DNA of 64,000 nucleotides from Candidatus Latescibacterota bacterium. Lineage in GTDB: Bacteria; Latescibacterota; UBA2968. Location of the stretch: positions 5,440,001 through 5,504,000 of the forward strand of contig OZ220741.1 of assembly GCA_965116885.1 (NCBI GenBank), read 5' to 3'. Position numbers and translations under genes: made by a program. Positions 35,592 through 61,517 of this stretch are shown here, piece by piece; positions within the stretch are counted from its first letter, which is position 1, and each line of letters begins with the position of its first letter. The notes below the pieces were generated by a model. It ran no database searches. It was given only the letters and a program-made list of their open reading frames with translations, and was not told where the DNA came from.

Positions 35592-36680
35592 ATGGATAAA
35601 CAGGATCTTGTGCGCGAAGATCAATTTCTGGGTTTTCGAATCTCGAGTCTCACGCGCCGACGCCTGGACAATTTTAAGGCAAATCGACGCGGCTATTACA
35701 GCCTGTGGATATTTCTCGTCCTGTTCGGGTTGAGCTTGCCCGCAGAATTTATCGCCAATGACAAACCCCTTTTGGTTCGACACAAGGGGGCGTTTTATTT
35801 TCCAGTATTAAAAGCCTACCCCGAAACGCTTTTTGGCGGCGACTTTGAAACCGAAGCTGAGTACCGAGATCCATTTGTAACAGAATTAATTGAAAAAGAC
35901 GGATGGATCATCTGGCCTCTGGTGCCATTTCGCTACGATACGATCAACTACGACCTCAAGCATCCAGCCCCTGCACCACCTTCTATACAAAACTATCTGG
36001 GCACCGATGATCAGGCACGCGATGTAACCTCGCGATTGCTCTACGGATTTCGGTTATCGGTCTTATTTGCCCTCGCGCTCACGGTATTCAGTTCCATAGT
36101 AGGCATTGCAGCCGGGGCCGTACAAGGTTATTTGGGGGGGTGGGTCGATCTTATTTTTCAAAGATTTATCGAAATTTGGGGCGGGTTGCCCACCCTGTTT
36201 ATCCTCATTATTATCGCCAGCATTATTGAGCCAACTTTCTGGACGCTCTTGCTGATTATGCTGCTATTCTCCTGGATGCGCCTCGTCGGCGTGGTGCGAG
36301 CCGAGTTCTTGCGGGCGCGCAATTTTGATTTTGTACGCGCCGCACGCGCTCTGGGTGTCAATGACTTGACAATTATGTGGCGGCACGTTTTGCCCAATGC
36401 CATGGTGGCAACCCTGACCTTCTTGCCCTTTGTACTGGTGGGATCTGTCACGGTATTGACCTCGCTGGACTTTCTCGGTTTTGGCCTTCCGCCCCCCTCT
36501 CCCTCGCTGGGAGAATTGCTCAATCAGGGCAAGCGCAATCTGCAGGCTCCCTGGCTGGGTCTATCCGGATTTTTTGTCCTGGCAATTATGTTATCGCTAC
36601 TTGTATTTATCGGCGAGGCCGTGCGCGATGCGTTTGATGTCCGCAAGACCCTGTCGCAAACGGAGGGTAAGAGCGCGTGA
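35592..36680 (+). CDS. yejE: ABC peptide transporter permease
   Basis: FKANRRG, LGTDDQARD, RAARALG and GEAVRDAFD. Confidence 0.92.
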   Translation: MDKQDLVREDQFLGFRISSLTRRRLDNFKANRRGYYSLWIFLVLFGLSLPAEFIANDKPLLVRHKGAFYFPVLKAYPETLFGGDFETEAEYRDPFVTELIEKDGWIIWPLVPFRYDTINYDLKHPAPAPPSIQNYLGTDDQARDVTSRLLYGFRLSVLFALALTVFSSIVGIAAGAVQGYLGGWVDLIFQRFIEIWGGLPTLFILIIIASIIEPTFWTLLLIMLLFSWMRLVGVVRAEFLRARNFDFVRAARALGVNDLTIMWRHVLPNAMVATLTFLPFVLVGSVTVLTSLDFLGFGLPPPSPSLGELLNQGKRNLQAPWLGLSGFFVLAIMLSLLVFIGEAVRDAFDVRKTLSQTEGKSA

Positions 36681-38302
36681 GCTTGTTAGACGTTCAAAAT
36701 TTGGGCGTGCATTTTCAACTCGAAGACCAGGTCGTCGAAGCTGTACGCGGCGTATCGTTTCACATTGAAAAAGGTGAAACCGTCGCACTCGTAGGCGAAT
36801 CGGGATCGGGCAAATCCGTCTCGGCACTTTCCGTAATGCAATTGCTGCCCTATCCGCGCGCCTCGCATCCACACGGCAGCGTACAATTTGACGGAGAGGA
36901 AATGCTGGGCGCGTCGCAAGACCGACTGCAACAACTGCGCGGCGACCGCATTGCGATGATTTTTCAGGAGCCGATGACCTCACTGAATCCGCTGCATACA
37001 ATTGAGAAACAGATCGGCGAAACCCTGATGTTGCACCGCAAAATGACGCGAGAGCAAGCGCGTGAACACACGATAGACTTATTGCAAAAAGTACACTTGC
37101 CCGATCCCGAAACGCGCCTCAAATCCTATCCCCACCAGCTATCGGGTGGTCAGCGACAACGCGTAATGATCGCCATGGCCCTGGCCAATGAGCCGGATTT
37201 GCTCATTGCCGATGAGCCTACAACTGCGCTGGATGTGACCATCCAGGCACAAATTTTGAAATTGCTCAAAGACCTGCAAGATGAATTTGGCATGGCAATT
37301 TTGCTCATCACGCACGACCTGACAATCGTGCGGCATGTAGCGGATCGCGTTTATGTAATGACCCAGGGAAAAATTGTAGAAGAAGGAGACACCGCGCGCA
37401 TCTTCGATCAGCCGCAACACATCTATACACAAAAACTTCTAAATGCACAGCCAAAGGGGACGGCATCCGCGCTGAATGGATCGGCACCCATTGTGGTCGA
37501 GGCGGATAATCTGAAAGTGTGGTTCCCCATTCAGCGGGGATTGTTGCGGCGAACCATCGGGCATATAAAAGCCGTAGATGGCATTTCAGTAACCATTCGC
37601 GCCGGACATACCGTCGGCGTTGTCGGCGAATCCGGATCGGGCAAAACAACATTGGGATTGGCCCTGTTGCGATTGCTGAGCAGTCAGGGACCGATTGAGT
37701 TTAATGGACAGGGCATTCAGAACCTGCCGGGCAAAGTACTCCGCCCCTTGAGGCGAGAGATGCAAATTGTTTTTCAAGACCCCTTCGGGTCCTTAAGCCC
37801 CCGCCTATCGGTCTTTCACATTATCGCCGAGGGGTTGCGGGTTCACAACATGGGAGACAGCGATCACAAACGCCGAGACCTCGTAGCAGAAATAATGGAT
37901 GAAGTCGGGCTTGAACCCGAAATGATGGACCGGTTTCCACACGAGTTCTCTGGCGGCCAACGGCAGCGCATTGCCATCGCACGCGCCATGGTATTGCGCC
38001 CCCAATTTGTGGTCCTGGACGAACCCACAAGTGCGCTGGACATGACCGTACAGTCCCAAATCATCGACTTGCTCCGGCGCTTGCAAAAAGACCACGATCT
38101 GGCTTATTTATTCATCAGCCACGACCTGCGGGTCGTGCGCGCACTCGCCAATGAACTCGTCGTAATGAAGGACGGCGTCGTTGTAGAACACGGCGCCACA
38201 GAAACCGTATTTGCAAATCCACAAACAGATTATACGCGGGAATTGATTACAGCGGCATTTGATATTGATGTTGTTGAAAGAGACACAGATGGAGGCGGAT
38301 GA
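36677..38302 (+). CDS. yejF: ABC peptide transporter, fused double ATPase
   Basis: Two GESGSGK Walker A motifs, [16 protein letters not shown] and DEPT. Confidence 0.93.
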
Positions 38303-38363
38303 TAGGCTTTAGAAAGGTAATAGCGCAACCATCCCCGTCTCTCAAAAACTATCGAACATCTAT

Positions 38364-40196
38364 TTAGCCGCCAAAATAATCGATAACAATTTCGGCCATC
38401 TTTTTCGAAGCCTCATTGTTCTGAATATCTACGACTGATATAGCGTGTTTTCTTCCAAGAGCATCCACTCTATCCCTATTATTTTCTACAACGAGCAAAA
38501 TCGTAGCAGATTGACCCATTATACGCAGTGCCTCTATCGCATCTTGAATATAGGCATCCGAATCACAGGCATTGACAATTAAGATAGAGGCATCCGGTTT
38601 CAGCCCCATCAAGAGACCAATGGATTGAAAAAGCGAAAGGTGGGGGCTATAAATATCATCAGGAATTATTGTTGATCGGGCCGAAAACAAAACGAGATCA
38701 GGCCGCTTTGTGCGGTATAGTTCGTGTAAATTGTAGCTGAGATATGATGTATAGTGCTGCTCAGACATCTCGAGTTTATCTGCCGAATCAATTGGAAATA
38801 CGAAATCCAAATTGAAGAGGTCTGCATATCTCTCTGTTCCAATCTGACTCACTTTATATCCTATTTGAGTAAGCTCTTTGAACAACTTGATCTGAATGCG
38901 AAATGTATCACAATGTGCCTGTGTGCCAAAAATACCTATGACTGGCACATCCACAGCTTGAAAATAAAAATAGCCGTTGGCAACATCCTCTATGTTCAAT
39001 TGAGGATTGAATATCTTTAACCCCTTTTTATTTGCTATCGCAAAGAGATCGTGATTGTATTTGGGTGGCAAACAACTGAAAATGTTGACATTATTTGCTA
39101 AAGTACGATACATAACTTCAGTCAATACATCTCGCCGGACAACGCGACTCAACGGACTCATATCGCCTATGATGAGCGTGTCGGCATTTTTCAGCACATC
39201 CCGAAGACACGCGCTTAGTTCAGAATCTAAGAGGACCGCTCGACCACTGCCATCATATCTAAACAGTCTCTCTTCCAGTGGATCGACAACACGATGTATA
39301 TCGAACTCGAGTAAATCCTCAAAACGCTCTATATTTTTCAGCTCTTTGTGAATCGCAAACAGGGTTGCTCGCCTAATACAAGGATATTGTTGAATCTCTT
39401 TTCTTTTTTTTTGTGATATTGGTTTTTCAGTAATTGGTAATACGACATCATTTTGAATTGATTCTACAGGTTCCGGAAGGGATTGCAGCGATAGAATTTC
39501 CCTTGTCGCATTTAGAGAGGCGCAAGGGTAAATTTGCCGAATCAAACAGACGATCCCTGCAATACGAGATGCGGCAAAACTCGATCCTGCCGTAATGACT
39601 TTAGACGAATTTTTCCAACACAAAATCTGTTCGCCGCCATGCGCGACACATTCAATGTGATTATTTTTTCGGAAATAATAATCATTGAGCTTTTGCAGCG
39701 GCTTTCCCTGCACGCCAATGACATCTGGGAAAATAGCTGGATAACTTTCGATTCCTCTGTTGTGAGCTGCTGCAACGAGAATGATATCTTCTTGGGCAGC
39801 TTGCCGACACAATTCTTGGATAGGCTCAAAATACTGACGATCCGTTGTGCCCAAACTCAAATTGACAACATCTATCCCGCGATCTATGACCCACTGCAAA
39901 GCTGCTATTAACAATTTGCCATCCGCAACCAAAGATTGTTCGAAAATGCGGATAATATAGATTTCAGCATCAGGCGCGATTTGGCGAATGATTCCCGTGC
40001 AAGCAGTGCCATGGCCTGATCGATCCGCATAATCAGTTCCCCAAATAATCTGTCCATCGGAATCTATTTTGATATCCATACCCTGAGTAATAGATCCGAT
40101 TTCGGGATGTTCATAATCGACCCCACTATCGATGATTGCTATTTTGACGTCCTGCCCCGTCAATCTGCCAAAATCCAGCTTATCCGTGTCCTCCAT
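38364..40196 (-). CDS. Cytoplasmic S8 (subtilisin-like) protease fused to a DUF1611/TIGR04066-like C-terminal domain
   Basis: IIDSG, HGTAC, NLSLG, AAAHN and GSSFAA; C-terminal VPVIGIFGT...GYKVSQIGTERYADLF; no signal peptide. Confidence 0.8.
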   Translation of the reverse strand: MEDTDKLDFGRLTGQDVKIAIIDSGVDYEHPEIGSITQGMDIKIDSDGQIIWGTDYADRSGHGTACTGIIRQIAPDAEIYIIRIFEQSLVADGKLLIAALQWVIDRGIDVVNLSLGTTDRQYFEPIQELCRQAAQEDIILVAAAHNRGIESYPAIFPDVIGVQGKPLQKLNDYYFRKNNHIECVAHGGEQILCWKNSSKVITAGSSFAASRIAGIVCLIRQIYPCASLNATREILSLQSLPEPVESIQNDVVLPITEKPISQKKRKEIQQYPCIRRATLFAIHKELKNIERFEDLLEFDIHRVVDPLEERLFRYDGSGRAVLLDSELSACLRDVLKNADTLIIGDMSPLSRVVRRDVLTEVMYRTLANNVNIFSCLPPKYNHDLFAIANKKGLKIFNPQLNIEDVANGYFYFQAVDVPVIGIFGTQAHCDTFRIQIKLFKELTQIGYKVSQIGTERYADLFNLDFVFPIDSADKLEMSEQHYTSYLSYNLHELYRTKRPDLVLFSARSTIIPDDIYSPHLSLFQSIGLLMGLKPDASILIVNACDSDAYIQDAIEALRIMGQSATILLVVENNRDRVDALGRKHAISVVDIQNNEASKKMAEIVIDYFGG

Positions 40197-40214
40197 TAAA
40201 ACCTCATCGGTTGA

Positions 40215-41918
40215 TCATCCATAAAGCTGACTATACACTTTACCATGATGTATAAGTTCATCATGAGTGCCTTGTTCCGCCACCCGATGATCTTCAATGA
40301 CCAGGATATGATCCGCATGTCTGATTGTTGAAAGTCTATGAGAAATAATAATCGTTGTTTTCTCTTTCCTGATCTCTTGTAAAGCTTGTAGAATTTTTGT
40401 TTCAGATTCCGTATCCAGGGCTGAAGTCGCTTCATCCAGAATCAGAATGGGTGTATTGCGAAGAATGGCTCTGGCGATCACGATCCTCTGTTTCTGTCCC
40501 TGTGACAACTGCGCGCCTCGTTCTCCCACCTGGGTCTCATACCCTTCTGAAAATTCTTGGATGAAATCATGGGCATGTGCCAACCTTGCTGCCTTCTCTA
40601 CTTGCCACGTTTCCACTCTTTTATTTCCCACGGATATATTTTCAAATACCGAGCCGTAAAACAAAAATGGATCCTGCTGCACAAGCCCAATTTGTCCTCT
40701 CAGAGATGAGAGCCTCATCTGTCTTATATCATATCCATCAATAGTAATAGCACCTGCCTGAGGATCGTAAAATCTCGGGATCAATTGGACGAATGTCGTT
40801 TTGCCATTGCCACTTTTTCCCACAATAGCTGTAGTCTTTCCTCTCTCAATCTCGACAGTGACATCGCTGATAACGGATTGTGATTCTCTATATGAAAAAG
40901 ACACATTGCGAAATTCAATGTGTCCTTCAAGTGGAGGGCCTTCGGGTAATTCTGGAGTCTCTTTTATCTCTGGAACAATGTGGTGAACCTCGAGAAAGCG
41001 ATCAATGTGGACAATAACCGTGCGAAAGTCCATCAGGAGACTCAGCAAACCTTGCATTGGGCCGGAGAGGTAGCCTACATAAGCAGTAAACGCCAAATAG
41101 CTACCCAGACTCATATCACCAGAGAGAATCTGCGTCCAGCCATACCAGCCATACAAAAGCGTCCCACCAGCATGAAGGGCATTAATTAGAAAGCCCGATG
41201 CACCCTGCCAGCAATACATGTTCAGTCGTATCCTTGCTGCTCCTATGGTGGGGTTCTTGATTCGCGAAAACATATAATCTTCGATATTCAAAGCCTGGAT
41301 GGTTCTGATCCCCGAAATAAACTCGATCCTCTTTGCAGAGGCTTCGGCAGTTGTTTCAGCAATTTCTCTGGTTTTTTTAGCCGTATATTTCGACATGAAC
41401 CACGATATCACAGCATCAAATGGCAATACTGCCATACTCAGCAAAGCCAACTTCCAGTTCATGTAGAACAAGATAGGTGGAAACAAGAGCAGCGTCCCCA
41501 CGCTCATAAACGTTGTGCCAATGATACCCATAATTCCAGCTACTGATGATAGGGCATCTCGTGATCTCGATATAATCTCACCGGCTTCTCTCTGATCGAA
41601 AAAACTGAAATTGAGGTATCCGATATGATGATAAAATCCCAGCCCCGTTTTGAGACTTAATCTCATGTTGAGATTATCAGAAAAATATTCATTTAGTGAA
41701 GATATCAGATTGGAAAAAATAGAAATAAAGGCTGTGGAGACGAGAACGACATAAAGTAAGTTTGCGTCTTTGGTGTGATAGACATTATCGATGAGAACTT
41801 TTGTAAAGTAGGGTGGGAGAAGAGAGAAGAAAATCAGAAAGGCACTGACAAACAATGTCTGTATGATCATCTTTCGATGTCCACGCAGCAATAATAAGAT
41901 ATGGGCAAGCTTCTGCAA
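40215..41918 (-). CDS. ABC exporter (TMD plus NBD) lacking a C39 peptidase domain
   Basis: About 6 TMs, GKSGNGKT, LSQGQKQR, LDEATSALD and HRLSTI; TTG start with SD AGGAGG. Confidence 0.92.
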   Translation of the reverse strand: MQKLAHILLLLRGHRKMIIQTLFVSAFLIFFSLLPPYFTKVLIDNVYHTKDANLLYVVLVSTAFISIFSNLISSLNEYFSDNLNMRLSLKTGLGFYHHIGYLNFSFFDQREAGEIISRSRDALSSVAGIMGIIGTTFMSVGTLLLFPPILFYMNWKLALLSMAVLPFDAVISWFMSKYTAKKTREIAETTAEASAKRIEFISGIRTIQALNIEDYMFSRIKNPTIGAARIRLNMYCWQGASGFLINALHAGGTLLYGWYGWTQILSGDMSLGSYLAFTAYVGYLSGPMQGLLSLLMDFRTVIVHIDRFLEVHHIVPEIKETPELPEGPPLEGHIEFRNVSFSYRESQSVISDVTVEIERGKTTAIVGKSGNGKTTFVQLIPRFYDPQAGAITIDGYDIRQMRLSSLRGQIGLVQQDPFLFYGSVFENISVGNKRVETWQVEKAARLAHAHDFIQEFSEGYETQVGERGAQLSQGQKQRIVIARAILRNTPILILDEATSALDTESETKILQALQEIRKEKTTIIISHRLSTIRHADHILVIEDHRVAEQGTHDELIHHGKVYSQLYG

Positions 41919-41965
41919 GAAAACCTCCTAACACTGCCAAAAATCCCATCCTAACCTGAAAAAGG

Positions 41966-42349
41966 TCATTTGATTTTTTCATCCTTCGTATCAGTTTCAG
42001 TCTTAGTCTCAAGGGTATCCATGTATCTATGAGCCATATCCCATACCAGGTATGTCAGCATCTCTTCCCAAATTTCACCCACTTCCTCCTTCTGGATTTC
42101 ACTCTGAATTTCACTCTGGGTAATAACCAAATTGTGAACAAGCGTGGTATCTGTATAGGTTGTATCTCGACCATCGTTTGTAATTTTACCCCGCATTACA
42201 GTACCACTGACTCTGACAGAATCTACATGATGTGCTATAGTCATATTCTCAAGCCTTACCACTATGATACCCGATGAATCATGATCATCGCAACTACCAA
42301 GCAGAACTAAACCAGCGATCATATATAGAATAGATATTCGTTTCCGCCT
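41966..42349 (-). CDS. Small predicted lipoprotein, paralogue of the 44587-44910 core; the homologous start codon reads AGG (first in-frame ATG at 42322)
   Basis: SD GAGGAG 7 nt before AGG; (R)RKRISILYMIAGLVLLGSC lipobox; DSVRVSGTVMRGKI, DTT and VGEIW similarity. Confidence 0.7.
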   Translation of the reverse strand, partial: RRKRISILYMIAGLVLLGSCDDHDSSGIIVVRLENMTIAHHVDSVRVSGTVMRGKITNDGRDTTYTDTTLVHNLVITQSEIQSEIQKEEVGEIWEEMLTYLVWDMAHRYMDTLETKTETDTKDEKIK

Positions 42350-42362
42350 GCTTAATCTCCTC

Positions 42363-44426
42363 TCAATTCGCGTGGGTAATAGAGTCTGTAACCGTATTGG
42401 ATTTTATGATTAGAAAGCTAAAGTTAGCTTCTCCACGCTCCAAATTCTTCACCAACTCTACATCGACAGCAGTTCCCGGTTTATCCATAGCCTGAAGCAA
42501 GTCATTACTCGCCTGTTGTCTTGGATCATCTTGGGGCAAGAGAGCCAAAATTTGATGCAGAGATTCTTTTGTTACTTCAGGCTGTTTATACAAGATGCCT
42601 AAACCTGTGTGTTTTTTAAGGGCTTGAAATTTTTCCTCTAATGTGGATGATAGTTCTATAAGCTCTTGATTTGCTTCAATGGCTTTTCCATAGTTTTCTA
42701 AAAAAATATAGCTCACCAAGAGCCCGGTATTGATTTGCTTTTGATCGCGACAGTAAGTTGTTCGGTTACAGTGTTCTTTTTGCTTTTCCAACTCAATCAT
42801 TGCATTGGCATAATCTCGAAGTTTAAGATAGTGCGAGGCCAATTCTTTACGCAGTGCATGAGCATTTGGATAAAGTTCCAATCCCTTTTTGAATATAGAA
42901 GCTGCTTTTGCGTTTTCATTGCGGATGCGATAAAATATCCCTGCTTGTAACAAGGTGGCACCATTTGTGGGGCCCATTGCGAGGGCTGTTGAAAGATATT
43001 GATCTGCTTGTGCATTTTTTACCGGATCATTTTCATTTGCATAAAGTTTGGCGAGCAAGGCATAAGTGCCTGGCAAGGGCGGCTGATTCGATACTGCTGC
43101 CTCAAGTTCCCTGAAAGCATCTTCTTTATTTCCCTCGTCGTATAGAAATCCACCTCTGTCAGTTTGTAGACAATTTTGTGCATAAATATTTGTTTCGAAG
43201 TTATGAGGCAAATCAACACCTATAGGAAAGATGAATAGCGAAGATTGGTCATAAAAATTCCAGGCATGTTGAAAATCGACAGTGGGAATTTCTCGGTTAT
43301 AAATCCAGTGAAGTACATCATAAGAAATGATAATGTCTTTAATTTCGTCATACCCCACAACCAATGTGAAATGCCCATAACCGTATTCGGGTTCAAGAAT
43401 GAGTACAAGAACTGGGTAGCCTCGATTGACCCAATATTTAATTTTAGGAAGGTCTGCTACGCCCAAATAGGCTTGAAATCCTCTTTCAACAGCAAAATTC
43501 CACAGGGCATAAGGAGTAGTGCCAGCATCATCTCCTATTTTCTTTGCGATCGATTTCTGGGAGACCGAATCGTTGAGAAAATTTAATACCATTTTGAGGG
43601 TTGCAGAACCGCACGCACCCAGTGTCTGCACGATGTAGCCCCGAGGGGGAAAGGGAACACCATCGATGATTTTTCTTTTTGCATCATCAGGCACATTATT
43701 TAGCGATTTTATGTAGTGTTGCGCTTGTTGATAAGTGGCTTGATTATGTTCCAACTCAATCATAGAATAATTCTCAATGGCTTTGCCATGTTTTCCCATT
43801 GCATAATACACATCACCGATCTTGAGCCTTGCTTTAGCCAACAGTTCAGGCGTTTTTTCCGTTTTGATAATCCGATTAAACGCATCTATCGCCTGCTCAT
43901 ATCGCTGCAATCTCATAAGACATATCGCAAGTACCCGTAGAATGAAGGTATCTTCTCCTTTCAGACGCAGTGTTTCTTTTAAATATTGAATTGCCTTCTC
44001 ATATCGGCCTTGTCCTGCCAAAAGTAAGCCAAGATGTCCATTTACTTCCACATCCTCCGGTGAGAGCGCGAGCAGACTTTCGTAACAGCTAATCGCATCT
44101 TCATATCGCTCCAATCTTTTATACGCATAGATCAGTTGATGGTATGTAGTCTGATTATTAGGATTAGTTCTTAATATAGCCTTTCCATATGCAACGGACT
44201 GATCATAGTCTTCCATCCCAATAAAGGCGGCTTGCAGAAGCCCCAATACATCAATATCTTCTGGATTATTTTTTAAAACTTCTTGGAATAATTCAATAGC
44301 CTGTGGATAATTTTCTTGCTCATATAATTCGAAGCCTCTTTCTATTTTGCTATCCAGCTTATTTGAACAAGCAGAAAGCAGAATCAAACCTGCGATAATG
44401 CATAGAATAGATACTCGTTTCCACAT
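42363..44426 (-). CDS. Lipoprotein with N- and C-terminal TPR arrays flanking a C39-like cysteine peptidase domain
   Basis: MWKRVSILCIIAGLILLSAC lipobox; TPR helices; QTLGACGSATLKMVL, GYPVLV and GHFTLVVGYD...YD. Confidence 0.85.
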   Translation of the reverse strand: MWKRVSILCIIAGLILLSACSNKLDSKIERGFELYEQENYPQAIELFQEVLKNNPEDIDVLGLLQAAFIGMEDYDQSVAYGKAILRTNPNNQTTYHQLIYAYKRLERYEDAISCYESLLALSPEDVEVNGHLGLLLAGQGRYEKAIQYLKETLRLKGEDTFILRVLAICLMRLQRYEQAIDAFNRIIKTEKTPELLAKARLKIGDVYYAMGKHGKAIENYSMIELEHNQATYQQAQHYIKSLNNVPDDAKRKIIDGVPFPPRGYIVQTLGACGSATLKMVLNFLNDSVSQKSIAKKIGDDAGTTPYALWNFAVERGFQAYLGVADLPKIKYWVNRGYPVLVLILEPEYGYGHFTLVVGYDEIKDIIISYDVLHWIYNREIPTVDFQHAWNFYDQSSLFIFPIGVDLPHNFETNIYAQNCLQTDRGGFLYDEGNKEDAFRELEAAVSNQPPLPGTYALLAKLYANENDPVKNAQADQYLSTALAMGPTNGATLLQAGIFYRIRNENAKAASIFKKGLELYPNAHALRKELASHYLKLRDYANAMIELEKQKEHCNRTTYCRDQKQINTGLLVSYIFLENYGKAIEANQELIELSSTLEEKFQALKKHTGLGILYKQPEVTKESLHQILALLPQDDPRQQASNDLLQAMDKPGTAVDVELVKNLERGEANFSFLIIKSNTVTDSITHAN

Positions 44427-44464
44427 GCGTAAAACCATCACTTGTAACTCCAAATGTATATCTG

Positions 44465-44522
44465 AAAAATCGGGGCCTATATTTGAGGTAGGGTAGGTAA
44501 TCAAATTAATATAGACCCCGAT
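44465..44522 (-). terminator. Stem-loop with short U-run downstream of the precursor-like gene
   Basis: Minus strand ATCGGGGTCTATATT...AATATAGGCCCCGAT-TTTT. Confidence 0.6.
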
Positions 44523-44586
44523 AATGAATTTTAAGCCACAAGAAAAAGCGAAAAGACAGCATTAATGGAATGAGGTCAAGGCCGAT

Positions 44587-44910
44587 TTAAGTGTCATCAA
44601 TCTGATCCATTACCCAATCCCAGATTCGACCAACTATACCTTTTGTACCGAATGGTGCTTCTTTCTTCACATCCTCCTTGGTCGCGGTAATTTCAATCTT
44701 TTTTGGCTCTGACCAAGTTGTATCTCCCGGTGCCTCAACTCTACCTTGCTTGACCGTTCCCGTAACCTTAATGGTATCACCAGGAGTTTTAACGAAGGTA
44801 GTAGGCTCAGTCGTCTGATAAACTATGGTTTTTTCATCATCCCCATAAGCTTCAACACATCCCAATTCCAGATGATAAGATCTCTGCACGCGTTTCACAA
44901 GCGTTTTCAT
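44587..44910 (-). CDS. Putative exported precursor protein (22-aa leader ending VEAY plus 85-aa Thr-rich core)
   Basis: Strong SD AAGGAGG; MKTLVKRVQRSYHLELGCVEAY|GDDEK...; lies next to HlyD/ABC/S8 genes. Confidence 0.75.
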   Translation of the reverse strand: MKTLVKRVQRSYHLELGCVEAYGDDEKTIVYQTTEPTTFVKTPGDTIKVTGTVKQGRVEAPGDTTWSEPKKIEITATKEDVKKEAPFGTKGIVGRIWDWVMDQIDDT

Positions 44911-45078
44911 ACATCCCTCCTTGAAAGAGTGAAAACACGCTCTTTCCGTTTACATCGGTTTAGAAAGAGAGTATTCAAAAATTGACGGTCTTTCCTCTTC
45001 TCCTTGTGGTTATTTCAATTCCCAAAGGCGATGCGGAAGGCAACAGAAAAGTACTCCCAGAATTTCCTCCTTTCTTTT

Positions 45079-46287
45079 TTAATTCGCCTTTTTGGGATCG
45101 AAAATATAGAAATCATGTTCGGGAATTTTTCCCGCTGTGCGAAGAAACCTGTTCCATATCAGATCGAGAATTCTTCCCTTTTCCACGGCTATCTTCGCTT
45201 CAACGCTCATGCCGTAAGCAAGTGAATAGGTATTGCTATTTACAGAAATTTCGGGGTTCTGAATCGTTATTTTTATAGGATAAACTTTTGTCTCTTGATA
45301 GGGATTATCCGATACAGACTGTGCAGCAATTTCTGCGACTGTACCCTCAAAAATTTTGTATTCCATGTGAGGAAAGGCATTCACGAAAAGATTCACGGGT
45401 TGTCCGACTTGCACTTTGTGAATCTCTGTTTCTTTGATCATCACTTTTGCCTGCCAATCACCCAGGCGTGCAAGTTCCATTACAGCCTCTCCCATCTGGA
45501 GGTGGTCGCCAACGCGTCGTTCTAAATCGCCAGTTAAAACCGTGCCAGATACAGGCGCATAAACCACGGTGTTTTCTATTCGACGCAGCAAGACACGTTG
45601 GTCTTCTCTCAGTTTTTGGTTCATTTTTTTTAGCGTCTCAATTTCTCGGTGCCTGCGGTCAACCGTTTTCAATCTTTCCTGGTCTGTTTGTAATTTGACC
45701 TGCGCCTGTTTTAAAATGGATCTTTTTAGTCTTATGGGTAGCAACTGATCAATTCCTGATTTACTATTCACGAGATTGTATTTTTCAACGAGTTGATACT
45801 CCCGTTCTACTTGATCCAGTTGCAAACGCAAGGTCTCTATCTCGGACTGTGTTTGACGAATCTCACTTTGTAGAATTTTTTTTTCTGATCTCATCTGTTC
45901 TTCTATCTCTGCCATCCTGCTTCTGTTAATTTCTTGCTCTTTGCCGACTTTCTCCAATTCGGCTTCCCACTCCCTGCTTTCCAACTTAAAAAGAAGGCCT
46001 CCTTTTGCCACCTTGTCCCATCTATCGACATAGACTTCATGTATTATTCCCGAAAGCTTTGTCTTCACTTCAAAGCGACCTGAAGGTTCAACAACACCTG
46101 TCCCTTCCACATTTACATTCATTCCAATATTCCACACCAAAAAGAGGATACCTGCAATCAAAGTGATAACGGATAGCAAGATGAACAGGAGAAATCGTTT
46201 GACAAATCCAAAGCCTATTCCCTTAAAATCGTCTATAATGTCTATTGGGACTTTTGTCTGGTCGTTTTGAATAGCGGGGGACTTCAT
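45079..46287 (-). CDS. HlyD-family membrane fusion protein
   Basis: N-terminal TM, coiled coil, VYAPVSG, GQPV..VNAFPHMEY and GMSVEAKI. Confidence 0.92.
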   Translation of the reverse strand: MKSPAIQNDQTKVPIDIIDDFKGIGFGFVKRFLLFILLSVITLIAGILFLVWNIGMNVNVEGTGVVEPSGRFEVKTKLSGIIHEVYVDRWDKVAKGGLLFKLESREWEAELEKVGKEQEINRSRMAEIEEQMRSEKKILQSEIRQTQSEIETLRLQLDQVEREYQLVEKYNLVNSKSGIDQLLPIRLKRSILKQAQVKLQTDQERLKTVDRRHREIETLKKMNQKLREDQRVLLRRIENTVVYAPVSGTVLTGDLERRVGDHLQMGEAVMELARLGDWQAKVMIKETEIHKVQVGQPVNLFVNAFPHMEYKIFEGTVAEIAAQSVSDNPYQETKVYPIKITIQNPEISVNSNTYSLAYGMSVEAKIAVEKGRILDLIWNRFLRTAGKIPEHDFYIFDPKKAN

Positions 46288-46330
46288 TCTCTTGTCAGTG
46301 GCAAATTTTACACCGCTCCAAACGTTGCCT

Positions 46331-47608
46331 CTATAGGCTCGACAACAATTGCTCTGTACGCTCGGCTCCGTTTAGCAAAATGTTGTGTTTCATCCGGGGG
46401 CTTTCCAAACGCTCTAAAATTGCGTTTGCCATTCGCTCTAATGTCAGTTCTTCAGAGCGTATCATATCCGCTATACCTAATTCGGAAAGTTTCTCTGCTC
46501 GAGGTGCTTGATCAAGGTCTGTCTTTGCTGGAATCGGTACCAAAATAGCTTTTACACCTGTCTCAAGGACATTCATACACGTATTATAGCCCGCCTGACT
46601 GATAGACAATTCTGCGCCCTGCATCCACTGAAGAAAGTCGTTCGTGAACTTCGACAGATAGAAGAAATCTTCTGTACACATTTCTTCTATCGCATCATAC
46701 TCAGCGTCCTTCATAAAAACCCCAGCAAAGATCACCATCTTCATGTTTTGAACATAACCATTCTCGCAAAGTATCTTCCAGGCAGTTACCGCTGTTGTAA
46801 TCATGTCCCAACCGAGGATACCGCCACCAACACTGACCAAAACATAAGGTCCCTGTTTCTCTATCGTTTTTTGGGTATCGGAATCAAGGCTTTTCAATTT
46901 TTCAGAAACATATCCTGTATATTCAATTGGAATCTCGATATTCTCTATCCAGGGAAAAAATGATTCCAATTGAAAAAGTCTCGGATCACCGTGAATGAGG
47001 ACGTAATCAAAATATCGATTCAACACAGGAACAACGCGTTCGTAATACAATCGTGACAACCTTTTGTTTTTTTGGTCCTTACGCAAAAAAGAAACTGCAT
47101 ACCAAATCATCCTGGGTATGAAAAACAAAGTTTCCGGATGTGGCGGTTTCTTTGTAGAAAGCTCTTTTTCAGGAGTCTTTCTTATTATTTCACGTACGGA
47201 ACAGATCACCTTCACTTTTGGATTTACACTCTTTGCCTTTTGAATCGCAGGGATCAACTCTTTGTACAGTATAGATCTGGCAAATGGAAAAAGTTCAATC
47301 ACGAAAATATCTGGCTGTATCTGTGCAATTTTTTCGAGCAAAATTTGCCTGCGCTTCTCCTGAGCCTTCCGCAGACTGAATTTTGGGTCTTCACACACTA
47401 TGCGCTGAGACTCTAAATCCTTAAAGAGAGCTGGCAAACGAATGGTCGTAACTGACGGTATATCAATACGATGAATTTCGCGTCCCCCATCTACAAAATA
47501 GACTTTATAGCTTTTTGCCAATGCGCGAACGATCTGAAAATTTCTAAAATGATGACCAACACCTAACAAGTGTTGACTGAAGAAAACAATGCGTTTTTTG
47601 GATAACAT
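46331..47608 (-). CDS. GT-B fold glycosyltransferase (COG4671-like, GT28 C-terminal-like)
   Basis: SQHLLGVGH, ELFPF, HGDP, YTGYV, VSVGGG, SQAGYNT and DQAPRA. Confidence 0.88.
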   Translation of the reverse strand: MLSKKRIVFFSQHLLGVGHHFRNFQIVRALAKSYKVYFVDGGREIHRIDIPSVTTIRLPALFKDLESQRIVCEDPKFSLRKAQEKRRQILLEKIAQIQPDIFVIELFPFARSILYKELIPAIQKAKSVNPKVKVICSVREIIRKTPEKELSTKKPPHPETLFFIPRMIWYAVSFLRKDQKNKRLSRLYYERVVPVLNRYFDYVLIHGDPRLFQLESFFPWIENIEIPIEYTGYVSEKLKSLDSDTQKTIEKQGPYVLVSVGGGILGWDMITTAVTAWKILCENGYVQNMKMVIFAGVFMKDAEYDAIEEMCTEDFFYLSKFTNDFLQWMQGAELSISQAGYNTCMNVLETGVKAILVPIPAKTDLDQAPRAEKLSELGIADMIRSEELTLERMANAILERLESPRMKHNILLNGAERTEQLLSSL

Positions 47609-47641
47609 TTATCAGAATCCTCTGAGACCCATGATTTTGAT

Positions 47642-48085
47642 CTAAGAGCCACGTTCAGCCTCTAAATCTACACGGGATGAATTTTTTTGAATAAGGCTTT
47701 CGCATCTCACTTTTGCGCGGTAAGCAGTAAGAGACATGTCATTTACCTTCATAAACACCTCACAAAAATACTTTGAGGAATGAAATCCACACATGCCTGC
47801 AACCTCATAGGTCAACAGGGATTGTTCGCTTATTAAGTGCTTTGCATGGGCAATTCTGATCTCTCTCAATTTTTCTCGGAAAGGCTTGCCAACATGCTTT
47901 TTGAACAAGGCACTCAGATGCGTTCTGGAAAGTTTGAAATGATCTACGAGATCACTAAATTTGAGGTCCGGGTTGCTGTAATGCGCCTCCAAAAAGGCTT
48001 CAAACGCAATTTTCCAACTCGAATCTGATGGGATATAGGTTTTGACCTTCGCCAAAAACTTGCTCCTTTCAACTACACTATTCAA
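47642..48085 (-). CDS. Stand-alone AraC-family HTH regulator
   Basis: HYSNPDL, LSRTHLSALFKKHVG, RIAHAK.L and EVAGMCGF..SKYF. Confidence 0.88.
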   Translation of the reverse strand: MNSVVERSKFLAKVKTYIPSDSSWKIAFEAFLEAHYSNPDLKFSDLVDHFKLSRTHLSALFKKHVGKPFREKLREIRIAHAKHLISEQSLLTYEVAGMCGFHSSKYFCEVFMKVNDMSLTAYRAKVRCESLIQKNSSRVDLEAERGS

Positions 48086-48114
48086 ATAGATTTTTCACTG
48101 TTTAAACAGATATG

Positions 48115-48131
48115 TGCAATATGTGTGCCAA
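48115..48131 (-). promoter_or_regulatory. sigma54 (-24/-12) promoter of the island
   Basis: Minus strand TTGGCAC-ACATA-TTGCA matches TGGCAC-N5-TTGCW exactly. Confidence 0.85.
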
Positions 48132-48228
48132 TATGAACTTCTCAAGTAATAATGCTCATAAAGTATTGTTTTTATTTCGTATAAAAATTATTACCGAGCA
48201 AAAGACAGGTAGAATACCGAATTAAAAG

Positions 48229-48276
48229 GTGAAAACATCGTTCACTTTTCTCTTTTCGAGTGAACATTATGTACAC
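48229..48276. promoter_or_regulatory. Two 17-bp palindromic enhancer-like (UAS) sites
   Basis: GTGAAAACATCGTTCAC and GTGAACATTATGTACAC, 31 bp apart, 100-145 bp upstream of the sigma54 site. Confidence 0.6.
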
Positions 48277-48287
48277 TTTAATTCGCG

Positions 48288-48316
48288 TTGACAATCGCGT
48301 TCCGGATTGTTATTTT
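48288..48316 (+). promoter_or_regulatory. sigma70 promoter
   Basis: TTGACA-N17-TATTTT with TG extension. Confidence 0.55.
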
Positions 48317-48355
48317 TTACATCCTTCTCAAGTTCTCAGCTTGAGATATTTACCT

Positions 48356-48397
48356 GCCGCTGACAGTTGACTTGCCCGGTCTTGTCGGCGGCTTTTT
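48356..48397 (+). terminator. Intrinsic terminator-like hairpin
   Basis: GCCGCTGACAG...CTTGTCGGCGGC-TTTTT. Confidence 0.65.
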
Positions 48398-48531
48398 CAT
48401 ACAACAATAATGATAATACCAACCTTTCAGTCGCTGCAACAAAAAAAGATTCCACTTATGTCTTATCTGACCTCTTTATGTCTTATTTTTGGTATTTTTT
48501 TTCGAAATGTTGTTTTTTTTATTATTCCTGA

Positions 48532-49515
48532 ATGGAAGGCCAAATGAATCAACTCGTTAATCAAAACGGTCAAATTATTCCACTCTCTTCACTAACAGAA
48601 TGGAAAGAAAAGCGCGCGAAAATACTCGAATCAGCGCAGGAAATCATGGGTCCTTTACCGGGAGGTGAAAAGCGATGCTCAATCGCCGTAAATCTGGTAG
48701 AAGAAGTAGATTGCGGGACGTATATCAGGCGGATGATCACCTACGCCGCAGAACCCGGCGACCGCGCACAGGCGTATTTGCTAATCCCAAAACAGGCGTT
48801 GGATGGTCATGAATGTCCAGTCGTCTTATGTCCACACCCAACGCATGCGACATTGGGATACAAAACCGTCGTGGGACTGGGCGACCGCCCCAATCGGGCT
48901 TATGCCAGCGAATTGGCCGAACGCGGCTTTGTCACCATCGCACCGTCCTATCCCATGCTCGCGGAATATTGGCCCGATGTATTCGGTCTGGGCTATGAAA
49001 GTGGAACTATGAAGGCGATATGGGACAATATCCGAGCCATCGATCTTCTGGAAACACTGCCGTATGTAAAGCGGGGACCTGTCGGGACAATCGGGCACTC
49101 TCTGGGCGGGCACAACTCGGTCTATACCGCTGTTTTTGAACCGCGCATCGGCGTTGTGGTATCGAGTTGCGGGTTAGACTCCTACATAGACTACAAAGAC
49201 GGTAATCTCGCTGGATGGACGCAGGATCGGTACATGCCCAAATTGAAAAATTACGTCCATCGCCTGTGGGATATCCCCTTTGATTTTCACGACTTAATCG
49301 CGGCTCTGGCACCCCGGCCCTGTTTTATTGCCGCGCCTCTGCGCGACAGCAATTTCAAATGGCAAAGTGTAGATGCCGTTGTCAACGCAGCCGCTCGCGT
49401 GTACGCCCTTTACGATGCAACAGAAAATCTAATCGTCGAACACCCCGATTGCGAACACGATTTTCCCAACGCCATGCGCGAACAGGCGTATCAATTATTC
49501 GAAAAACACCTTTGA
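48532..49515 (+). CDS. Alpha/beta hydrolase (dienelactone hydrolase / acetylxylan esterase-like)
   Basis: GHSLGG nucleophile elbow, LAPRP and EHDFP. Confidence 0.88.
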   Translation: MEGQMNQLVNQNGQIIPLSSLTEWKEKRAKILESAQEIMGPLPGGEKRCSIAVNLVEEVDCGTYIRRMITYAAEPGDRAQAYLLIPKQALDGHECPVVLCPHPTHATLGYKTVVGLGDRPNRAYASELAERGFVTIAPSYPMLAEYWPDVFGLGYESGTMKAIWDNIRAIDLLETLPYVKRGPVGTIGHSLGGHNSVYTAVFEPRIGVVVSSCGLDSYIDYKDGNLAGWTQDRYMPKLKNYVHRLWDIPFDFHDLIAALAPRPCFIAAPLRDSNFKWQSVDAVVNAAARVYALYDATENLIVEHPDCEHDFPNAMREQAYQLFEKHL

Positions 49516-61500: not shown

Positions 61501-61517
61501 TTGGCACGCTTTTTGCA
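61501..61517 (+). promoter_or_regulatory. sigma54 promoter
   Basis: TTGGCAC-GCTTT-TTGCA. Confidence 0.85.

Follow-up and report, generated by a model that had tools for sequence, protein, structure and literature searches.

How would a bacterium make, trim and release one small protein from a compact gene island, and why would only some of its close relatives carry that island? The question is raised by a 64,000-nt stretch of the genome of a Candidatus Latescibacterota bacterium (assembly GCA_965116885.1, contig OZ220741.1, positions 5,440,001 to 5,504,000 of the forward strand), called here the window and numbered from its first letter. Eight co-oriented minus-strand open reading frames (ORFs), all intact and separated by 18-168 nt, lie within 38364-48280. 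They had been listed in an initial annotation as encoding, in order, an AraC regulator, a GT-B glycosyltransferase (GT), an HlyD protein, a 107-aa precursor-like protein, a TPR/C39-like lipoprotein, a lipoprotein paralogue of the precursor core, an ABC exporter without a C39 domain and an S8 protease fused to a DUF1611/TIGR04066-like domain; Pfam and NCBIfam scans agreed with this order and with the domain calls, and the gene content is established. As had been supposed, the scans gave no match to radical SAM, YcaO or Lan enzymes for any of the eight proteins, and the island is indeed more AT-rich than its surroundings (GC 0.413 against 0.511 for the 5.56-Mb genome, in which 0.54% of 1110 ten-kb windows have a GC of 0.425 or less). 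We read the island as a strain-variable, horizontally exchanged cassette for making, trimming and exporting one small protein, and give this statement as a whole a probability of about 0.55. One part of it, the leader-dependent processing and export of the product of the 107-aa precursor, can be called probable from sequence comparison. A bacteriocin-like factor of between-strain competition is the most likely role for the product, a proposal that we hold tentatively and at rather less than even odds.

The precursor ORF (107 aa, 44587-44910, minus strand) belongs to no Pfam or NCBIfam family and falls into two parts. Residues 1-22, ending in ...VEAY (44845..44910, minus), form a leader that is near-invariant in seven aligned homologues and is matched by a leader hidden Markov model (HMM). 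Residues 23-107 and the stop codon (44587..44844, minus) form the putative core, described from its composition and a low-confidence model. With 85 aa, no Cys and 15 Thr, the core is as long and Cys-free as had been described. AlphaFold2 predicted beta-strands followed by a C-terminal helix for the core, at low confidence (pLDDT 54.7), and modelled the leader as disordered. Among the homologues the leader stays nearly constant while core identity falls to 35-50%, the pattern of a leader-guided precursor, and the initial call of a leader-bearing precursor was thereby upheld. Genuine relatives are rare, only 9 being found among 1.84 billion representative sequences; one further match of that search, P0147 (2162 aa, 28 stretches), proved to be a spurious translation of tandem repeats and was discarded. 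No usable match for the core was found in the ESM Atlas. Subtilisins prefer an aromatic residue at P1 and a hydrophobic one at P4, and the presumed cut site, ...V-E-A-Y, has both and would suit such an enzyme.

The leader is shared with other loci that encode an S8-DUF1611 fusion. Forty-five further loci of this kind were fetched and searched in all frames with the leader HMM, making 46 with the window (W, the window island; L and a number, a fetched related locus; G and a number, a genome of the genus, with G000 the genome of the window itself). A leader-bearing ORF was found at E<=0.01 in 13 of the 46, so that homologous S8 loci do carry EAY-leader ORFs, and six of these loci (L010, L011, L024, L027, L031 and L032) had not been seeds of the model. 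The common form is M-x-K-L-V-K, 6-14 residues, [V/I]-x-A-Y and then acidic residues. When all 106,062 frames of the own genome were searched, the HMM gave E<1 at only three places, all S8-DUF1611 loci (the window and the loci A and B described below), and the next-best score was E 6.9. The leader-bearing ORF of locus B has 127 aa, that of locus A adjoins the S8-DUF1611 locus, and none was found at locus C. Across the paralogous loci the ORF keeps its position between the HlyD/ABC genes and the S8 gene, and across the Latescibacterota family core lengths of 50-115 residues are the rule. The proposal that the precursor carries a TIGR04065-type leader had to be given up, as neither TIGR04065 nor any other NCBIfam model matched the 107-aa ORF or the locus-B precursor at E<=10; the sole NCBIfam match of the precursor in L040, a sister cassette described below, was the unrelated IF-6 at E 0.064. 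Judged by sequence, the leader represents a new family and is no member of TIGR04065.

The presumed processing enzyme is the S8 fusion protein (610 aa, 38364-40196, minus), in which PF00082 covers residues 14-234 and TIGR04066 residues 327-504. The S8 (subtilisin) domain (39483..40157, minus) scores 78.9 bits on PF00082 against a cut-off of 21.8, and the residues D23, H62, N112 and S206 are conserved both in the window clade and in the main family, so the triad is intact. In a paralogous fusion, the nearest solved relatives of the S8 part are subtilisin BPN' chains. The window fusion has no signal peptide, so cleavage would take place in the cytoplasm. The DUF1611/DgcN-like domain (38367..39374, minus) was assigned from an AlphaFold2 model (pLDDT 84.1, pTM 0.83) and by Foldseek, which gave 2g0t, 2obn and 7xrj as the best matches of the C-terminal 356 residues (E 7e-12 to 7e-11, TM 0.53-0.65), 7xrj being N-acetyltransferase DgcN by its PDB entry title. 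On this model the domain retains the two-domain DUF1611/DgcN-like fold, Rossmann-like at its N-terminal side and P-loop-like at its C-terminal side. No PF07755 match was obtained for it in the Pfam scan, although relatives of the fusion, including those of the own genome, pass the cut-off of this model (DUF1611_C 'P-loop domain').

That this domain has degenerated in the window clade is established. In 99 main-family fusions 253 columns are conserved to at least 90%; the window clade (18 sequences, 76-100% identical) retains 69 of the 82 columns in the S8 part and only 92 of the 171 in the DUF1611 part, 79 having been lost. A GK-F-T Walker-type motif has been replaced, a conserved 9-residue segment deleted and several other invariant motifs lost. 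The P-loop is present in 43 of the 46 loci, and 36 of these 43 have a gene for an acyl carrier protein (ACP) within 8 kb; the only loci with no P-loop are W, L010 and L011, and the same three are those with no ACP-like ORF. Since both the ACP gene and the P-loop have been lost, the ACP-dependent step of the relatives, whatever its nature, would be gone in the window clade. Nevertheless, in comparison with L010, the closest orthologous island, the dN/dS ratio is 0.31 for the degenerate domain and 0.29 for the S8 domain, and we read the former as a pseudo-enzyme that may be kept for a non-catalytic job, most simply binding of leader or substrate.

The fusion family to which this protein belongs is widespread. 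A match at E<=1e-30 is present in 88 of 168 Latescibacterota genomes, and at least 657 proteins match at E<=1e-10 in a collection of 5.8 billion proteins; some of these records are named Gemmatimonadetes, Spirochaetales or Latescibacteria, and they are annotated only as 'S8 family serine peptidase'. The own genome has three further S8-DUF1611 fusions, 33-42% identical to that of the window, in systems with an ACP: locus A (L012, G000:C1 about 1831900-1847200), locus B (L013, G000:C1 about 1759100-1769100) and locus C (L014, G000:C1 about 1933300-1946900). Each has an ACP-like gene, a response regulator combining a receiver (REC) domain with AraC (REC-AraC) and an MsbA/HlyB-like ABC gene, at a GC of 0.43-0.45. 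Locus A also has ResA-like, YknW-like and DrrA-type ABC genes and a GT of the same type as that of the window, and locus C has sugar dehydrogenase and sulfotransferase-like genes. Many relatives also encode a protein of 343 aa that matches BtrH_N weakly; taken with the ACP, it suggests a possible acyl-transfer step in the main family. Given that long cores are found family-wide, the proposal that machinery of ribosomally synthesised peptides that are modified after translation (RiPPs) was repurposed for the secretion of a small protein does not set this island apart. What distinguishes the island, going by its sequence, is loss: it has no ACP gene, and the DUF1611 domain is dead at its P-loop. 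As a separate observation, some precursor genes of the family are flanked by small membrane proteins (100-125 aa) that are paralogous, come three to five in a row and have a zinc-ribbon-like CPxCG...CxxCG N-terminus (L044 10935-12897, L047 7060-9045 and own genome 1831229-1833175); they are candidate immunity or accessory proteins.

The genomic setting points to exchange between strains. The inserted island (38303..48531, minus) was delimited by its low GC and by the flank genes, an oligopeptide-type ABC ATPase gene on the left (36677-38302, plus strand, called an ATPase from sequence motifs) and a 327-aa alpha/beta-hydrolase gene on the right (48532-49515, plus). Both were located in all 21 genomes of the genus. 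They abut directly in seven, are 0.6-1.3 kb apart in two, enclose a 10-12 kb S8 island in G000 and G074, and enclose a different island of 15-16.5 kb in G085, G088, G080 and G073 (L055-L058). In three genomes they are on separate contigs, including G075, which has the S8 island, and in three they are far apart. The S8 island is therefore present in 3 of 21 genomes, and the polymorphism of this hot-spot is established. The alternative island encodes a REC-AraC regulator, an 843-aa GT4::Glyco_tran_28_C fusion, a second GT, small ORFs with GG-type leader ends, Rce1/CPBP proteins, a cNMP-binding C39-ABC exporter, HlyD, a PpiC rotamase and a UDP-GlcNAc 2-epimerase, and has the look of a separate system for the export of glycosylated peptides. 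CPBP proteins and DrrA-type ABC genes also occur in relatives. A search of the island ends showed no att-like repeats.

The sister cassette L040, from another genome of the genus, is closely related in some genes (GT 84%, HlyD 84%, ABC 90% and TPR-C39 67% identical) and has the same leader in front of a different core. Its S8-DUF1611 protein is only 38% identical to that of the window and has an intact P-loop; an ACP gene is present, there is no paralogue, and a 58-aa remnant is left of a BtrH_N-like gene. By its gene content, L040 shows an intermediate state in the loss of the acyl module. Comparison with L010 established purifying selection on the island: seven of the eight genes have dN/dS of 0.07-0.32 (GT 0.14, HlyD 0.15, ABC 0.07), and the precursor gene has 0.59 with few changes and a core unchanged in amino acids (dN 0). 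The dS values are uneven, being 0.03-0.17 for the precursor, TPR-C39 and paralogue genes (41966-44910) and 0.41-0.46 for GT, HlyD, ABC and S8-DUF1611, which suggests recent exchange or recombination of the middle segment.

Two putative lipoproteins are encoded between the precursor and the exporter. The first ORF (713 aa, 42363-44504, minus) combines TPR with a C39-like region matched by PF13529 (39.4 bits, cut-off 24) and PF03412 (23.4 bits, cut-off 22). A lipobox, LLSAC, follows an internal Met, and with the start at this Met (42363..44426, minus) the product is a PA2778-like lipoprotein predicted to be periplasmic. Its score on NF033920 (PA2778 equivalog), 59 bits, is below the 150-bit cut-off. 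W, L010, L011 and L040 all keep the C39-like Gln/Cys and His/Asp motif residues, and a sequence search of the PDB gave TPR matches only.

The second lipoprotein, the paralogue, was called as an ORF of 118 aa (41966-42322, minus) that belongs to no family. With the ancestral start it spans 41966..42349 (minus), 42323-42349 being an in-frame remnant of the n-region in which the ancestral ATG reads AGG. Twelve other of 13 aligned paralogues start with a MRKR..SILC.. signal, in which the lipobox Cys is present; the window protein keeps this Cys, and the AGG leaves only 10 residues ahead of it. The ATG-restoring base was found in sequencing run X6 and in a minority of X2, and X3 and X4 agree with the AGG of the window; since both forms are seen among runs, the change is a real strain variant. 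The relationship to the precursor core claimed in the initial annotation is real and weak (BLASTP 29% identity over 59 aa, E 4e-6; the precursor-family profile matches at E 5e-5 to 2e-4 per genome), and it has to be qualified by the absence of the canonical lipoprotein start in this strain. The signal-peptide DNA of the paralogue and that of the TPR-C39 gene share a direct repeat of 57 nt (82% identical), because of which the paralogue looks like a chimera joining the lipoprotein signal of its neighbour to a copy of the precursor core. Prediction of a complex between the mature paralogue and the core gave weak support, with a score of 0.39 against 0.02 for the best of three controls, agreement between runs in at least 48% of contacts and a partner pLDDT of at least 58. 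Of 157 solved complexes 116 reached the mark used, as did 2 of 215 mismatched pairs; for scores of 0.60 or less only 18 of the 157 solved complexes reached it, and both passing mismatches fall there. In G085, an orphan copy of the paralogue lies at the edge of the alternative island with no precursor or S8 gene.

The remaining genes would supply modification and export. The GT-B glycosyltransferase (46331..47608, minus; Glyco_tran_28_C, MurG/MGT-like; PF04101, 52.6 bits) is a cytoplasmic candidate for a tailoring enzyme. Its best PDB sequence match is only MurG (E 0.0014). Homologues are present in L010, L040 and five other S8-DUF1611 loci (L012, L015, L016, L042 and L046), and the same type forms the C-terminal half of the 843-aa GT in the alternative island. 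Known glycocin transferases belong to another GT family; in that comparison the island offers only a GT-B, Glyco_tran_28_C enzyme. An additional GT4-family gene follows the S8 fusion in L010 (11894-12988) and L011 (8026-9120) and is not present in the window. The ABC exporter (40215..41918, minus) is a half transporter with membrane and nucleotide-binding domains (PF00664, residues 21-288; PF00005); it has no C39 domain, the membrane domain beginning at residue 21. Its best NCBIfam models are of the HlyB type, MsbA-like and bacteriocin ABC, all below their cut-offs (TIGR01846, 399 against 725.55). The HlyD-family periplasmic adaptor (45079..46287, minus) matches PF16576 and PF13437 and scores 100 bits on TIGR01843 (cut-off 208.65). 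HlyD had been taken to indicate diderm type I secretion; the protein is present, but HlyD alone does not show passage through the outer membrane, and neither TIGR01843 nor TIGR01846 reaches its cut-off.

At the head of the island is a regulator of the AraC family (47642..48085, minus; PF12833, 60 bits; PF00165). It has 147 aa, in comparison with 267-277 aa for the REC and helix-turn-helix (HTH) regulators of homologous islands, and the initial label AraC holds for the HTH domain of what is a remnant with its receiver domain deleted. About 418 nt of REC-coding DNA has been lost relative to L056, with which the upstream and promoter DNA is homologous; this comparison overturned the earlier view, taken from L010, that the REC domain had been replaced by unrelated AT-rich DNA. 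The regulator of G085 has the same truncation, and the REC-AraC gene of L010 is intact. A perfect sigma54-type -24/-12 motif, TGGCAC-N5-TTGCA (48115..48130, minus), lies 30 nt upstream of the regulator ORF. Two perfect motifs occur in the window against 0.05 expected, the second being outside the island (61502-61517, plus). Related loci totalling 993 kb contain 13 sigma54-type matches, nine of which sit upstream of a REC-AraC or AraC gene, at distances of 17-346 nt; eight of these nine belong to loci other than the window. The genome encodes RpoN, and the motif is kept in near-identical contigs of X3 and X4, the sole change, at 48120, being in the spacer. The description of the island as sigma54-driven is thus plausible, from the motifs, for this strain and many relatives, and it is not universal, as L010 has no such motif within two mismatches. 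A scan for sigma70 promoters and terminators gave a near-chance result, 27 promoter-like sites where 24.9 were expected, and was set aside. In G077, where the hot-spot has only a 1.3-kb insert (L060), a sigma54-type motif at 2135-2150 stands in front of a 288-aa sulfotransferase-like ORF and may be a remnant of a former island. The interval between the regulator and the hydrolase contains about 230 nt of non-coding DNA (48270-48500) that is 81-94% identical in L010, L055 and L056; it includes a 16-codon mini-ORF and has no Rfam match, nor did any Rfam family match in 37500-49000 at E<=0.1. Farther out, the flanks include a BPD_transp_1-type transport permease and a DUF362 protein, and no radical SAM gene is among the flank genes.

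From these genes, we infer the following course for the cassette, including the cleavage site and export route. The operon would be transcribed from the sigma54-type promoter and would encode, as its regulator, the HTH-only AraC protein that has lost its receiver domain. The cytoplasmic S8-DUF1611 fusion would recognise the 107-aa precursor through its 22-residue leader, and its S8 domain would cut after Tyr22. The Thr-rich, Cys-free core of 85 residues may be glycosylated by the GT-B enzyme, and the C39-less ABC transporter with the HlyD adaptor would carry the product out of the cytoplasm. In the periplasm, the product could meet the TPR-C39-like lipoprotein, for processing or chaperoning, and the lipoprotein paralogue of its own core, as a tether or for immunity. 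Bacteriocin loci are known for a pattern in which a polymorphic hot-spot combines alternative cassettes for leader-peptide export with an orphan partner gene, and it is mainly because of the corresponding features here (hot-spot, alternative export cassettes and orphan paralogue) that a role in competition is preferred.

Several observations weigh against this reading. The other 33 of the 46 loci contain weaker leader look-alikes in six cases and nothing in the rest. A leader HMM made from the window group alone misses the locus-B leader at a limit as lax as E<=1000 and found nothing else in the own genome, so that the link between the leader subgroups rests on the combined model, the shared motif and the gene position. 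In metagenome loci outside the phylum, obtained with the family alignment and consisting mostly of S8-only relatives (the DUF part matched in 5 of 80), the leader was found in 0 of 80 at E<=1 in 600 kb, and it can thus be claimed only for Latescibacterota. In the tree of S8-DUF1611 proteins the window clade is on a long branch, apart from the sister cassette L040, a placement that may reflect either gene replacement or fast divergence. The motif upstream of the regulator is absent from the closest orthologous island, as given above. The island contains no gene of the TolC type or for an outer-membrane efflux protein (OEP), seven OEP genes being located elsewhere in the genome, and it contains no dedicated immunity gene of known type. 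The core is, as modelled, hydrophilic and beta-rich, unlike typical membrane-active bacteriocins. Finally, the strain shows signs of decay, having lost the REC domain, the start of the paralogue and the P-loop.

The alternative that survives best, though we consider it unlikely, is that the small protein serves the cell itself as a subunit or building block of a periplasmic or outer-membrane structure. Folding or modification in the cytoplasm would come first, the S8 protease would remove the leader, and after export by the ABC transporter the protein would assemble with the paralogue and the TPR lipoprotein, in the manner of the qhp system. In that system a subtilisin-like protease of the cytoplasm removes a 28-residue leader, an ABC transporter then delivers the protein to the periplasm, and the regulator is inducible; QhpE acts in this way on QhpC, the gamma subunit of quinohemoprotein amine dehydrogenase, before ABC export (PMC7876137). 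QhpE is also the best NCBIfam match of the island's S8 domain, at 137.4 bits, which is below the cut-off of 165. The same leader, protease and ABC logic, the two periplasmic lipoprotein partners, the weakly supported complex of paralogue and core and the hydrophilic, beta-rich core would all suit such a building block. Against it, the island has no radical SAM or flavoprotein partner, no core Cys and no dehydrogenase subunits, and the cores vary strongly behind an invariant leader. Presence in 3 of 21 genomes, at a hot-spot shared with an alternative export island, fits accessory competition genes better than housekeeping ones.

A second possibility, distinctly unlikely in our view, concerns what the main family does. 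There, the S8 domain would remove the leader, and the DgcN-like P-loop domain, the ACP and the BtrH_N-like protein would acylate the exported protein, giving ribosomal lipoproteins independently of Lgt/Lsp; in the window clade this chemistry would have been lost, and a new gene that joins the lipoprotein signal of the neighbour to a copy of the core may have taken over its function. In that case one fold would reach the envelope both by leader and ABC export and by Sec/lipoprotein sorting, and the two copies could pair there, either as a toxin with its immunity protein or as a subunit with its anchor.

Export of a signal is improbable. Leader-dependent ABC export is typical of peptide pheromones, and REC-AraC response regulators head most related islands, so that a pheromone could be sensed by a two-component system feeding these regulators. 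However, the island has no histidine kinase gene, the receiver domain is deleted in this strain, 85 residues are many for a pheromone, and hot-spot polymorphism does not require signalling. Still more improbable is a decaying, non-functional remnant of an ACP-dependent system. The absent ACP gene, the destroyed P-loop, the deleted REC domain, the AGG start of the paralogue in this strain, X3 and X4 and the 58-aa BtrH_N-like remnant of L040 would be accounted for, but all eight ORFs are intact and under the selection described above, including the dead domain and the unchanged core. The architecture is, moreover, kept in three species-level genomes and in about 20 protein clusters of 76-100% identity. 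Least probable of all is export of a glycolipid or glycan by ABC, HlyD and GT with the small ORFs as bystanders: the ABC protein scores nearly as well on MsbA-like as on HlyB-type models and the nearest relatives of the GT are MurG-like, but all ABC scores are below family cut-offs, the S8 protease has no role in such export, and the leader-bearing ORF keeps its place among the paralogous loci.

If the reading of the island as a cassette for leader-dependent export of a small protein is right, it would represent a widespread and unannotated family of such systems in diderms, found in about half of the sampled Latescibacterota and also among Gemmatimonadota and Spirochaetota records. The little-understood CLI_3235/TIGR04066 clusters of Gram-positives would be tied to a DgcN-like fold with an ACP partner, which gives a testable idea of TIGR04066 function. 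The window island would be a natural knock-out of the module, with a dead P-loop and no ACP and yet under purifying selection, and together with the sister cassette L040 it would offer a ready-made comparison for working out the chemistry. Near-identical contigs are present in sequencing runs labelled sponge metagenome, and the occurrence of alternative export islands at one hot-spot suggests chemical warfare or recognition between strains of sponge symbionts.

A literature search, supplements aside, turned up no account of an S8-DUF1611 fusion family that has leaders of this type, and the Latescibacterota family of fusion, ACP and ABC, often with HlyD, is apparently undescribed. It has points in common with several known systems. 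The predicted fold of the fusion's C-terminus is that of DUF1611/DgcN proteins (2g0t, 2obn, 7xrj), but the window domain has no Walker-type P-loop and no Pfam match and is fused to a protease. With type I secretion (HlyB-HlyD-TolC) the island shares an ABC half-transporter and an HlyD adaptor in a diderm whose genome has seven TolC-family genes; it differs in having what appears to be a cleaved N-terminal leader instead of an uncleaved C-terminal signal and in the absence of a TolC gene from the island. Systems with GG leaders and a C39-ABC transporter (PCAT) are similar in leader-dependent ABC export, an HlyD-type accessory, variable cores and a polymorphic accessory locus, and the alternative islands L055-L058 share with the S8 island the regulator module and a Glyco_tran_28_C-type GT domain. 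In contrast to PCAT systems, the ABC protein of the S8 island has no C39, the leader ends in EAY instead of GG, the protease, an S8 enzyme of the cytoplasm, is a separate protein, and the C39-like domain sits on a periplasmic TPR lipoprotein. The resemblance to QhpC/QhpE/QhpF consists of a leader-bearing small protein, a dedicated cytoplasmic subtilisin-like protease and ABC export, the last presumed for the island from its genes. The island has no QhpD radical SAM protein, QhpG or dehydrogenase subunits, its core has no Cys, the QhpE score is 137 against 165 bits, its protease is fused to a DUF1611-like domain, and it is accessory and polymorphic.

The closest kinship is with CLI_3235-type clusters of Clostridia and Paenibacillus, which, as in the SacP23 example (PMC10731318), combine a TIGR04065 precursor, TIGR04066, the radical SAM protein TIGR04068, the ACP-related TIGR04069, a subtilisin-like protease and an ABC transporter. 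The island likewise has an S8 protease, a TIGR04066/DUF1611-like protein, an ABC exporter and a short N-terminal leader, and the paralogous loci add an ACP-like gene. Unlike those clusters, it has S8 and TIGR04066 fused in one protein and no radical SAM (TIGR04068), the window clade has neither ACP gene nor P-loop, and HlyD, the TPR-C39 lipoprotein and GT are added in the island and REC-AraC genes in the family. Family cores have 50-115 residues, and that of the window is Cys-free, against about 42 Cys-rich residues in CLI_3235. The kinship proposed in the initial annotation holds. TIGR04065, radical SAM and ACP were not recovered in the island, and the fusions score 60.2 bits (window) and 120-136 bits (own-genome paralogues) on TIGR04066 against a cut-off of 200, so that homology is clear and membership is not reached. 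By sequence, the family of the cassette is related to these Gram-positive peptide-maturation clusters. A low-GC metagenome contig of 15.4 kb, L066, has a fused S8-TIGR04066-like gene beside ACP-like and BtrH_N-like genes, three ABC genes and a 439-aa ORF, and may bridge the Latescibacterota family and the CLI_3235 clusters.

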